DNA from: a phage
DNA length: 6,125 bases
Strand: one strand, 5' to 3'
Sequence record: PZ049726.1
In this document: positions 2,292 to 4,405 of the stretch, one piece after another
Position numbering within the stretch: position 1 is the stretch's first letter
Layout: the number at the start of each line of letters is the position of its first letter
The notes under the pieces: model-generated
What the model was told of the DNA's origin: nothing
The model's database searches: none
What the model saw: the letters and a program-made list of their open reading frames with translations, nothing else
Program-made: the position numbers and the translations under genes

Positions 2292-2393
2292 AAATCCTCC
2301 ATACGTTTTTTAGTTGTAACGACAACATAGATTAAGCTTAATTTGTTCTTTAACGCCTACAATAGAAGCTAAAAAGGCGCATAAAAAAAGAAC

Positions 2394-3282: not shown

Positions 3283-3438
3283 TTAAATAAAGTATTTCCC
3301 ATACTTTTCAAACCAACTATCAAGCTTCGGACTTTGCTTTCCATTAACCCAGTCTTTCAATTCTTGCCCAATTTCATCAAGATTCTTTTCTAGTACGGGT
3401 ATTGTAGTGCAAAGTCCATTCGGGTGTCCAACGGCAAA
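3283..3438 (-). other. C-terminal coding segment of the Mu F-like gene lying in the -1 frame relative to ORF 3390-4220
   Basis: The -1 frame is open for 52 codons (FAVGHPNGLCTTIPVLEKNLDEIGQELKDWVNGKQSPKLDSWFEKYGKYFI*), ending at TAA 3283-3285. It contains an HPN-x-x-C-T motif resembling the HPNCRC-type C-terminus I recall for Mu F / SPP1 gp7 proteins, and its last 42 codons are homologous to the relic at 2394-2522. Confidence 0.55.
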
Positions 3439-4220
3439 TTATTAACTGAATAAACAACTCCATTCCTACTCCTACTCATACACAATTCACAAGTTCTATG
3501 ACTACCTGAAGTAAGCCATTTAATTCCAGCAACAAACGGATTTCTTTGGCAACTTCTCTTCTGTGCTTGTTGAAAAGTATGATTTATTGCAGTACGGGCA
3601 AGTCTTTGAGCGTTATAATCAACTTGGGTAGAAGCTTTACGATATGTAGTCCTCCATTTCAAAGACTTTCTAGCACTAGGATTCAAATACACTTCCAAGT
3701 CCTTAGCAATTTCATACATAGACTTCTTTTCTGCAATTCCTTGAGCTAGAATATAGTCAATATCCTTTTCAAACTTCTTAGTGCATGCCCATATTCTTTT
3801 GCTTAAGCCTAATCTATCTTTGTAAAGCTTCCCAGACATTATTTCATTAACTGCAGCTTGAGGAACTTTAGCAAACATATCTATAAAGGTATCAGCTAAA
3901 TCTAAGCTAAAGGATTTTTTTATATCGAAGAGCATATTTAGTTGAGTTTCGTTGGCTATATTAGCAATCTCTATTAAATCCTTACTTAGTCTCTTATCAA
4001 TAGAATTAGAGAAAGTTGAAATATCTGTTTGTAAGGATTTTAATACACTTCTTACATATCTTTCGGATAAACTATCCTTTGATACTTTTGAAAGCTTCTT
4101 AGATGTATTTAAGTACATTTGCTTATATATATCTTTTATTTCTCTTTGAAGCTTCTTTGTTAGATGTATCTTTTTCTTATTAGCTTCTAGGCATAACTTT
4201 TCGTATTCTGATTTATTCAT
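3390..4220 (-). CDS. phage head morphogenesis protein, Mu F / SPP1 gp7-like (apparently frameshifted near the 3' end)
   Basis: 276-aa ORF immediately downstream of portal. The segment KWLTSGSHRTCELCMSRSRNGVVYSVNNLP fits the W-x-T ... R ... G-x-V pattern of the Mu F family. The expected following motif is found in the -1 frame, so the intact gene probably ran from 4220 to 3283. No strong Shine-Dalgarno; the start follows the upstream stop by 2 nt. Confidence 0.7.
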   Translation of the reverse strand: MNKSEYEKLCLEANKKKIHLTKKLQREIKDIYKQMYLNTSKKLSKVSKDSLSERYVRSVLKSLQTDISTFSNSIDKRLSKDLIEIANIANETQLNMLFDIKKSFSLDLADTFIDMFAKVPQAAVNEIMSGKLYKDRLGLSKRIWACTKKFEKDIDYILAQGIAEKKSMYEIAKDLEVYLNPSARKSLKWRTTYRKASTQVDYNAQRLARTAINHTFQQAQKRSCQRNPFVAGIKWLTSGSHRTCELCMSRSRNGVVYSVNNLPLDTRMDFALQYPY

Positions 4221-4222
4221 AA

Positions 4223-4405
4223 TTATTTTCTGTTTAAATCAACATAAAGAGTTTTCTTTATGTATTTAGCCATCTCTAAATATTGACTTCTTATCTTTTT
4301 ATCTATTCTACTATCTTCTAGCATAGTTACAAAAGCATACATTGATTCTTTGAATTCATCAGTTTGTGTAAGCTTTACTTCTAAATTTATAAAGTTATCT
4401 TCCAT
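4223..4405 (-). CDS. hypothetical small phage protein (60 aa)
   Basis: ORF whose ATG overlaps the portal stop (TAATG) and whose stop lies 2 nt before the Mu F-like start. Packed in the operon; no recognisable motif. Confidence 0.5.
   Translation of the reverse strand: MEDNFINLEVKLTQTDEFKESMYAFVTMLEDSRIDKKIRSQYLEMAKYIKKTLYVDLNRK

Follow-up and report, generated by a model that had tools for sequence, protein, structure and literature searches.

Organization of the locus

The 6,125-nucleotide (nt) stretch of phage DNA analysed here (sequence record PZ049726.1; the window) carries a gene for a MuF/SPP1 gp7-like minor head protein whose reading frame is interrupted by one missing base, and an HNH homing-endonuclease gene lies directly downstream. 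All coordinates are those of the whole window, and every gene and statement refers to the minus strand. The gene order is portal, an open reading frame (ORF) of 60 amino acids (aa), MuF, endonuclease, two small ORFs, scaffold and major capsid. The position of MuF, behind an SPP1-type portal gene and the 60-aa ORF and ahead of the scaffold and major capsid genes, fits a head module, and the rest of this module is intact in the window. The relevant features are the following.

5811-4405, minus strand: SPP1-type portal gene (PF05133, 116.7 bits)
4220-3390, minus strand: MuF/SPP1 gp7-like minor head protein gene, ORF of frame A, 276 aa (PHROG 1657, 192.9 bits)
3454-2442, minus strand: laterally shared cassette of about 1 kb (1 mismatch in about 1010 nt against locus L040)
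3422-3435, minus strand: lesion site, the 14-mer GCCGTTGGACACCC, one base fewer than intact LPLDHP
3426-3283, minus strand: copy 1, the MuF C-terminal segment in the -1 frame, (G)HPNGLCTT...KYGKYFI and stop (ratio of non-synonymous to synonymous divergence, dN/dS, 0.09 against locus L096)
3281-3258, minus strand: relic of the 5' half of the target site, 24 nt, CTTGA--ATCCTAATGGATTGTGTAC
3224-2541, minus strand: free-standing HNH and NUMOD3 homing-endonuclease gene, 227 aa (PF01844, 34.6 bits; PF07460 (NUMOD3), 21.4 bits)
2550-2533, minus strand: intrinsic-terminator-like hairpin overlapping the endonuclease stop codon, with a T-rich tail after it
2522-2394, minus strand: copy 2, relic of the recipient's own MuF 3' end, CTTIPVLEKELDQ...KDFL and stop (100% aa identity to residues 269-310 of P0001)

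One base is missing from an invariant motif of MuF

The frame-A product of MuF ends in ...VNNLPLDTRMDFALQYPY (tail portion ...LPLDTRMDFALQYPY) and a stop, and its final 12 codons (TRMDFALQYPY and stop) are out-of-frame read-on beyond the lesion. Across the same bases the -1 frame reads FAVGHPNGLCTTIPVLEKNLDEIGQELKDWVNGKQSPKLDSWFEKYGKYFI, with 51 sense codons from 3438 to 3286 and then TAA at 3285-3283. This frame is closed immediately upstream by TAA TAA (3444-3439) and contains HPNGLC at 3426-3409. In 40 homologues C244, C247, H264 and C269 of the CxxC ... LPLDHPNGxC motif were invariant, and the ORF of the window is not continuous through this motif, the frame changing between D (3428-3426) and H (3426-3424). 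The codons CCG TTG GAC (P L D in frame A) overlap CAC CC (H P in the -1 frame) at base 3426. Because GAC and CAC share this base, the frames must switch within 3438-3424. Intact homologues have CTA GAT CAT CCG AAT GGG (LDHPNG) where the window has TTG GAC-ACC CGA ATG GAC, so the window is exactly one base short between its D and H codons, at position 3426. The lesion is thus a 1-nt deletion within the codons of the invariant LPLDHPNGxC.

When the two frames were joined, residues 4-312 of the restored protein aligned in one piece with the head-morphogenesis protein of Clostridium phage phiCT19406A (40.6% identity), and also with hundreds of proteins of 310-311 aa. The best of these was P0001, an intact 310-aa Paraclostridium bifermentans protein (88% identity). 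The score against PHROG 1657 ('head morphogenesis') rose from 192.9 bits for the frame-A product (profile positions 10-283) to 255.9 bits for the restored protein (E = 1e-75, positions 10-332), the -1-frame segment contributing 63 of the 255.9 bits. Pfam PF04233 could not tell the two forms apart, each scoring 17.5 bits, under its cut-off of 29.6, and a precomputed PF04233 match is present on close homologues of the protein. The AlphaFold model of intact P0001 was moderate (predicted local distance difference test, pLDDT, 66.6; predicted template modelling score, pTM, 0.39), with values of 70-89 in the C-terminal third. A Foldseek search of this model against the PDB returned nothing significant (best E = 0.14), and a zinc site built from C244, C247, H264 and C269 could not be shown on it.

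These results bear out most of the original prediction for this DNA, which had placed a break of the MuF frame before the conserved C-terminal motif, with correct coordinates. It had assigned the HPN motif (3409-3426) to the -1 frame, noted the two upstream TAA codons and the lack of an X-XXY-YYZ heptamer, of which there is none in the sequence, and blamed a single-base indel. The second MuF copy that it reported is present at 2522-2394, and the profile alignment it proposed as a check finds the -1-frame segment MuF-like. It had missed the HNH gene between the two MuF 3' copies and the left edge of the cassette within about 30 nt of the lesion.

Two side observations concern the DNA around the site. 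A promoter-like element, TGGACA-18-TACAAT (3401-3430), overlaps the lesion, and the deletion partly creates its -35 box; this is probably a chance match, with 7 promoter-like sites in the region and 6.3 expected. A 6-nt tandem duplication of AGTAGG (3472-3477) adds Ser-Arg (SRSRNG vs SRNG) and is absent in L040 and all aligned homologues.

The lesion lies within a homing-endonuclease cassette

The cassette consists of a replacement MuF 3' end (copy 1), the target-site relic with the promoter, the HNH-NUMOD3 gene and a terminator. The endonuclease gene starts with GTG, 7 nt after AGGAGG. Its family comprises 14 full-length members with 43-100% identity, in which the C..C, HH, N and C..CH..H columns (catalytic residues) are invariant. 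The relic corresponds to L D H P N G L C T. Both the -35 box (TTGAAT, 3280-3275) and the spacer of the predicted endonuclease promoter, TTGAAT-17-TATAAT (10/12 matches), come from it, and the -10 box lies at 3257-3252. Of the seven cassette representatives examined, six have retained the relic ahead of the endonuclease gene; in the other, L048, it was degenerate. A TGTACTA repeat occurs on both sides of the endonuclease insert, which therefore sits inside the C-T-T codons of the duplicated target, 12-18 nt downstream of the lesion position. The left edge of the cassette was clear from the comparison with L040, in which mismatches climb to 8-20 per 100 nt in the N-terminal part of MuF immediately to its left. 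The last of these mismatches lies 28 nt upstream of the lesion, placing the lesion about 30 nt inside the edge. Homing would be expected to produce such a pattern.

A tblastn search with intact P0001 found two copies of the MuF C-terminus in the window, copy 1 being 61% and copy 2 100% identical at the aa level. Copy 2 has no upstream coding partner. Such relics persist in L011, L040 and L096, and in L042 the relic is fused to the endonuclease ORF, which runs into the copy-2 tail and ends in ...KKYGSEFM. In the window, too, copy 2 is in frame with the endonuclease ORF, the gap being TAA and six codons (2523-2543; H L stop L G A F I I C T T I P V...).

At this locus the endonuclease gene is present in the window, L040 and L011 and absent in L005-L010, L012 and L013. 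All 10 distinct endonuclease-positive alleles, which represent seven endonuclease protein clusters (53-100% identity), were broken at HPN and none was intact, the interruption lying 12-18 nt upstream of the insert. CCN-stop-CCN was the interruption in most of them, and CCC-TAA-C or CCG-TAGTGAAG-CCA in others. A further lineage, L090, also carries the endonuclease gene, and its upstream MuF is broken at HPN as well. Among distinct endonuclease-negative alleles, 10 were broken and 14 intact (Fisher p = 0.0017, a figure that is indicative only, as retrieval favoured some locus classes and the alleles share ancestry). Three endonuclease-negative loci (L003, L004 and L191) keep the lesion, and their C-termini switch from the copy-1 to the copy-2 type; they look like cases in which the endonuclease gene was lost through recombination between the direct repeats copy 1 and copy 2. 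Taken together, we consider it very likely that the lesion belongs to the endonuclease cassette.

The endonuclease is itself a mosaic when compared with that of L011, which has a +1 lesion: the C-terminal approximately 75 residues and the right junction DNA are identical (2541-2770), and the N-terminal part has diverged, giving 77% identity overall. A tblastn search of GenBank phages with the endonuclease returned only distant HNH relatives (33-48%) from Bacillus and Staphylococcus phages. In IMG/VR, a public collection of metagenome-derived viral contigs, a single-sequence query gave no endonuclease match, and an alignment query gave only four already known contigs of the PLGRC lineage described below.

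The lesion is inherited and the downstream frame is under selection

The same lesion with the same out-of-frame tail was found in at least 10 distinct alleles (the window, P0007, P0145, P0147, P0149, P0150, P0151, P0154, P0160 and L096). Carriers include NCBI Paraclostridium genomes (QEZ68001.1, EQK46959.1 and MCU9808126.1), Paraclostridium sp. AKS46 (P0007 / L003), two Logan (public read-archive) assemblies (L040 and L041), the IMG/VR prophage contig L191 and six more distinct 274-aa proteins, two of them from NCBI P. bifermentans genomes. The alleles sharing the tail differ at many N-terminal residues, and at least nine different N-terminal backgrounds were represented. As a search pattern the 14-mer GCCGTTGGACACCC was too short, giving more than 120 chance matches, none of them MuF; a longer pattern yielded one more endonuclease-free allele with the lesion of the window, L191.

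The original prediction had offered an assembly or sequencing error as one explanation, and single-base indels are a common error type; the uninterrupted form would read GACCACCC. However, identical lesion DNA with the out-of-frame tail occurs in independent NCBI, ENA, Logan and IMG/VR assemblies, which excludes such an error, and the context is not a homopolymer (GGACACCC). An artefact at 3426 can hardly be credited, and the lesion is almost certainly real and inherited.

The closest view of its history came from L096, whose endonuclease is 56% identical to that of the window and whose MuF N-terminal part is clearly different, yet which shares the 14-mer and is likewise one base short. In the -1 frame downstream of the lesion, 29 of 144 nt differed between the two, and 19 of these differences fell on third codon positions (binomial p = 4e-4). 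These changes amounted to 15 synonymous and 7 non-synonymous codon changes, with dN 0.117, dS 1.26 and a ratio of 0.09. Random substitution of the same number of bases would be expected to cause about 20 aa changes, and 7 or fewer were seen in none of 20,000 simulations. Over the same segment in all lesion-bearing alleles, the median dN/dS was 0.26 (115 pairs), indistinguishable from the 0.25 of intact alleles. In the PLGRC insert lineage (17/17 IMG/VR contigs and 10 metagenome loci), downstream dS reached 1.7 with dN/dS of 0.02-0.7. The downstream frame is thus under purifying selection despite the lesion. This does not agree with the suggestion of the original prediction that the gene sits in a decaying prophage.

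Other lesions at the same codons

Close relatives carried other interruptions of the HPNG codons.

L011: CAT CCC T AAC GGG, +1 nt, reading HP and stop
L004, L042 and L043: CAT CCT TGA CCT AAT GGA, in-frame insert
L044-L047: CAT CCG TAG TGA AG CCA AAT GGA, +8 nt (CCG-TAGTGAAG-CCA)
L058-L065: CAT CCG TAA CCT AAT GGT, in-frame insert
L048-L057 and many IMG/VR contigs: CAT CCG TGA CCA/CCG TTA GGA, in-frame insert
L024, L026, L027, L034 and IMG/VR contigs: CAC CCG TGA CCG AAT GGA, in-frame insert

In-frame reading ends on the Pro codon of HP, with a stop after it, in five of the six designs. Within the PLGRC lineage CCG TGA CCR was present in 17/17 IMG/VR contigs, many of about 40 kb. An IMG/VR pattern that allowed any codon at the stop position of this lineage returned stops only, and a pattern for its uninterrupted version had no match there.

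We also noted a bias in the spelling of the preceding codons. Lesion alleles always have CTY GAC CAY, which contains TTGACC, or TTG GAC, and most intact alleles have YTR GAT CAT or TTA GAC CAY. Shared descent of the cassette arm, an effect of nuclease recognition or a recoding signal could each be behind this.

Proposed mechanism

We propose that the lesion shields the gene from the endonuclease of its own cassette and that translation compensates for it, a reading that we regard as moderately probable from sequence comparison. The endonuclease would cut intact MuF genes at or near HPNGxC-T^T (intact site CTAGATCATCCGAATGG...TGTACTAC; in L005, CCACTAGATCATCCGAATGGGAAATGTACTACTATACC). At the break in the recipient, the left end would invade the donor MuF gene and the right end would invade donor copy 2. 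Repair would then copy everything between them, namely the lesion, copy 1, the relic and the endonuclease gene, and the recipient 3' end would survive only as a dead relic (copy 2). The cassette's own version of the site would have to be uncuttable. Since the amino acids of the motif are invariant, the site would be disabled by an indel and not by substitutions. Other homing endonucleases tolerate synonymous variation in their sites, and we assume the same here; substitutions alone would then give no protection, and an indel would alter the spacing of the site. On this basis the lesion probably confers immunity to the endonuclease.

Full-length MuF would still be made by ribosomes that cross the indel. 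In the sister cassettes, the stalled peptidyl-tRNA-Pro would re-pair with the next CCN and restore exactly ...LPLDHPNGxC.... The re-pairing distances would be +1 in CC[C U]AA C, +6 in CCN-stop-CCN and +11 in CCG-TAGTGAAG-CCA. Pro directly before a stop codon causes slow, inefficient termination and stalling (PMC3985003). The indel of the window is a deletion, so a -1 shift is needed there, between GAC and CAC, and the junction peptide would be ...VNNLPLDHPNGLCTTIPVLEK. In this -1 design the only partial re-pairing seen would be that of tRNA-Asp from GAC to GGA, with L, D and H kept only by re-reading base 3426. A capsid holds only a few copies of the minor head protein gp7 (PMC6316719), and even inefficient recoding could therefore suffice. 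We think it somewhat probable, a little short of our view of immunity, that the downstream frame of the window's allele is translated by recoding.

Across the relatives, the MuF genes of Peptostreptococcaceae phages may hold a family of endonuclease-linked recoding sites, in which the HPNG target is disabled by an indel and ribosomes repair the message. Most lineages would use a Pro stop hop, others a +1 slip or an 11-nt hop, and the window a -1 shift with neither heptamer nor structure. We give this wider view an even chance.

Three other routes were considered and set aside. An 11-nt hop in the window from CCG (3434-3432) to CCG (3423-3421), with the geometry of L044, is unlikely, as it drops the invariant L-D-H and has no stop after the take-off codon. 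Reassignment of a stop codon does not apply, because TGA, TAA and TAG all end neighbouring genes. Selenocysteine insertion or suppressor readthrough cannot be the general answer either, since the designs use all three stops, two of them lie out of frame and the second Pro codon is constant.

Evaluation of alternative explanations

Several observations weigh against shielding combined with recoding. No X_XXY_YYZ heptamer was found in the permitted shift window of 3438-3424 (TTT GCC GTT GGA CAC / TTG CCG TTG GAC). The site of the window, CCG TTG GAC ACC CGA, has no stop after the Pro codon and no take-off/landing pair that preserves L-D-H; the sister cassettes do have take-off, stop and landing (CCT TGA CCT, CCG TGA CCR, CCG TAA CCT and CCG TAG TGA AG CCA). 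When 72-95 nt of RNA around the site were folded for the window and L096, neither a stable nor a shared structure emerged (z-scores 0.68, 0.08, 0.95 and -1.88). With the known shift signals absent, the case for -1 translation in the window is one of selection and conservation. The selection test between the window and L096 concerns one divergent pair, and if the same deletion had arisen twice and recently, the signal of selection would predate the lesion. The limited reading that the Fisher figure allows counts in the same direction. Finally, no cultured phage with the cassette was found by megablast of the window or by tblastn of the endonuclease against GenBank phages.

The most serious rival is a plain loss-of-function frameshift, in which MuF would stop short at 276 aa, the prophage would be defective or decaying, and the -1 segment would be an untranslated remnant. 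In SPP1 gp7 is dispensable, about 25% of virions without it remaining infectious (PMC6316719), so a truncated MuF could be tolerated; this also counts against a need for recoding. The lack of a recoding signal at the window's site agrees with simple truncation, as does the origin of most examples from bacterial genomes and metagenome assemblies, not cultured phages. Nevertheless, a dN/dS of 0.09 over a dS of 1.26 between two cassettes that share the lesion is difficult to reconcile with an untranslated remnant. The allele also occurs on at least nine N-terminal backgrounds, the cassette is near-identical within diverged flanks, implying recent spread via replicating genomes, and the remaining head module is intact. 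We therefore regard simple loss of function as unlikely.

A weaker rival than tolerated truncation is a recurrent repair scar. Here resident prophages would be cut and imprecise end-joining would leave small indels that can no longer be cut, each recent and independent, with MuF inactivated or truncated. Ku/LigD end-joining is present in spore-forming Firmicutes. The six different lesions lie within about 10 nt of each other, and in L004 the inserted 6 nt, TTGACC, duplicate a stretch found 9 nt upstream, which templated repair might produce. Yet the in-frame inserts always consist of a stop and a second Pro codon and never of a sense codon, and one whole lineage (the PLGRC contigs and metagenome loci counted above) shares its insert while the downstream sequence has diverged under selection. 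Exact restoration of HPNG by re-pairing of tRNA-Pro in five separate designs would also be unexpected. Scars of this kind seem improbable as the explanation.

A gene in pieces was considered as well, with N-terminal fragments of 276 (or 265) aa and C-terminal fragments of about 45 aa translated separately and then assembled, as with the nrdA or DNA polymerase genes that endonucleases split in T4-like phages. Gene callers annotated a separate ORF of 43-52 aa in L004, L044 and L065, and the model accounts equally well for purifying selection downstream. However, the -1 frame of the window has no ATG, GTG or TTG from TAA TAA (3444-3439) to a mid-segment TTG at 3345-3343 (...GQE-L-KDW...), and there is no start codon in the PLGRC lineage either. 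Separate initiation is unlikely where most designs have no start codon. In the P0001 model the fragment would, moreover, begin inside a predicted pair of β-strands (230-236 with 270-275). We consider this explanation very improbable.

Finally, an endonuclease residing in a self-splicing intron, with copy 2 as the true exon 2, would suit the annotations of HNH endonucleases of this type as often intron-encoded in Bacillus and Staphylococcus phages and the intact copy 2 just after the endonuclease gene, but it can be practically dismissed, because an Rfam scan of the whole window at E <= 1 gave no intron match and only two weak unrelated hits, the insert outside the ORF (about 45 nt upstream and 20 nt downstream) is too small for a ribozyme core, copy 1 evolves as protein-coding sequence, frame A offers no HPN for any splice junction, and endonuclease-free lesion alleles exist.

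The original prediction had ranked programmed frameshifting below an indel. Recoding across the indel is now the better-supported reading, its -1 variant being one that we infer from selection only.

Comparison with known systems

The closest known system is, by analogy, the T4 gene 60/mobA cassette. According to the summaries in PMC5009743 and bioRxiv 10.1101/2022.08.31.505936, the bypass insert of T4 gene 60 is thought to protect against the adjacent homing endonuclease MobA, and gene 60 and the HNH endonuclease MobA form a mobile cassette (Bonocora et al. 2011). In both systems an HNH homing-endonuclease gene adjoins an interrupted conserved phage gene, and the interruption, proposed as protection, travels with the endonuclease as one mobile unit. 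The sister cassettes, not the window, also resemble gene 60 in having a take-off codon, a stop and a matching landing codon. The two differ in the target, which is here the MuF/gp7 head protein instead of a topoisomerase, and in the hosts, here Peptostreptococcaceae. The gaps are 1, 6 or 11 nt here vs 50 nt in T4, and take-off is from Pro (CCN) here vs Gly (GGA) in T4, with no take-off stem-loop found. Unlike that of T4, the cassette carries a replacement 3' end of the gene, and the 1-nt deletion of the window, needing a -1 shift, has no T4 counterpart.

The sister designs also resemble the shifty stop of prfB/RF2 (CUU UGA C) and the synthetic stop hops in Escherichia coli (Weiss et al. 1987, as discussed in PMC5009743), in which a P-site peptidyl-tRNA at a slow stop re-pairs downstream. 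CCC UAA C of L011 and the CCN-stop-CCN relatives fit this rule. A 2016 review states that a natural in-frame stop hop was not known (PMC5009743). Unlike prfB, the sites here have no Shine-Dalgarno-like stimulator at the prfB distance, and the window has no stop at its shift site. The window shares with canonical -1 frameshifting (dnaX, IS911 and the phage tail-chaperone G/GT) the need for a -1 change and a conserved downstream frame. It differs in having neither an X_XXY_YYZ heptamer nor a downstream hairpin or pseudoknot, and the purpose would be the correction of an indel, not the synthesis of two products. As in Aeromonas phage Aeh1 nrdA/mobE and T4 genes 39 and 60, an endonuclease is inserted in or beside a conserved gene; function is retained in those systems and is proposed to be retained here. 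Unlike splits of the Aeh1 nrdA/mobE type, the downstream piece here lacks a start codon, and the endonuclease gene follows the whole interrupted gene and does not separate two expressed halves. Literature searches found no description of the present MuF/HNH system.

Other features of the head module

A megablast of the window against GenBank phages gave a sole match, to the capsid/scaffold region (77-1562) in Terrisporobacter phage TVCOM_ph1, at 78% DNA identity. The gene between portal and MuF (4223-4405, minus strand) varies among relatives. In the window it is the 60-aa ORF, which has no family; the same slot holds a Tad2-like protein (PF11195, 73-89 aa) in L004, L012 and L063, and DUF6275 in L062. 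Further nuclease genes (HNH_3 and GIY-YIG) were seen between or within the terminase genes of L003, L004, L049, L050, L052, L056 and L057, and in some of these relatives the large terminase was called as two pieces. The head module thus experiences heavy homing-endonuclease traffic. At 2302-2370 (minus strand) there is a weak match to the Rfam GP20-b cis-regulatory motif (24.2 bits, E = 0.062; gathering score 36.2). This stretch is intergenic, 3' of MuF and ahead of the scaffold module, and is conserved across relatives.

Implications

For decades T4 gene 60 stood almost alone as a case of ribosomal bypassing in nature, and its connection with a homing endonuclease was a one-off. The balance is about level on whether the present locus belongs to a second, independent system with the logic of gene 60, sampled in dozens of contigs and loci. 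If so, T4 gene 60/mobA would no longer be the only known case of translational bypass acting as immunity against a homing endonuclease; this would be the second, and it would include the first natural case of in-frame stop hopping (CCN-stop-CCN). Relative to gene 60/mobA, a different gene, nuclease and set of hosts, shorter gaps, proline take-off and alternative designs including a -1 form would appear to be new. It would also mean that several different recoding solutions evolved at a single codon. The six natural designs at this codon (-1, +1, +6 with UGA or UAA, and +11) provide a comparative series on what a ribosome needs in order to slip or hop, and would bear directly on whether in-frame stop hopping occurs in nature. 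For annotation, head-morphogenesis genes called 'frameshifted' or 'truncated' in Paraclostridium, Romboutsia and gut phages should not be taken as pseudogenes or as evidence of defective prophages before they have been checked. More broadly, if the proposed mechanism is true, the locus illustrates how a structural gene that is conserved can have recoding imposed on it by a selfish nuclease.

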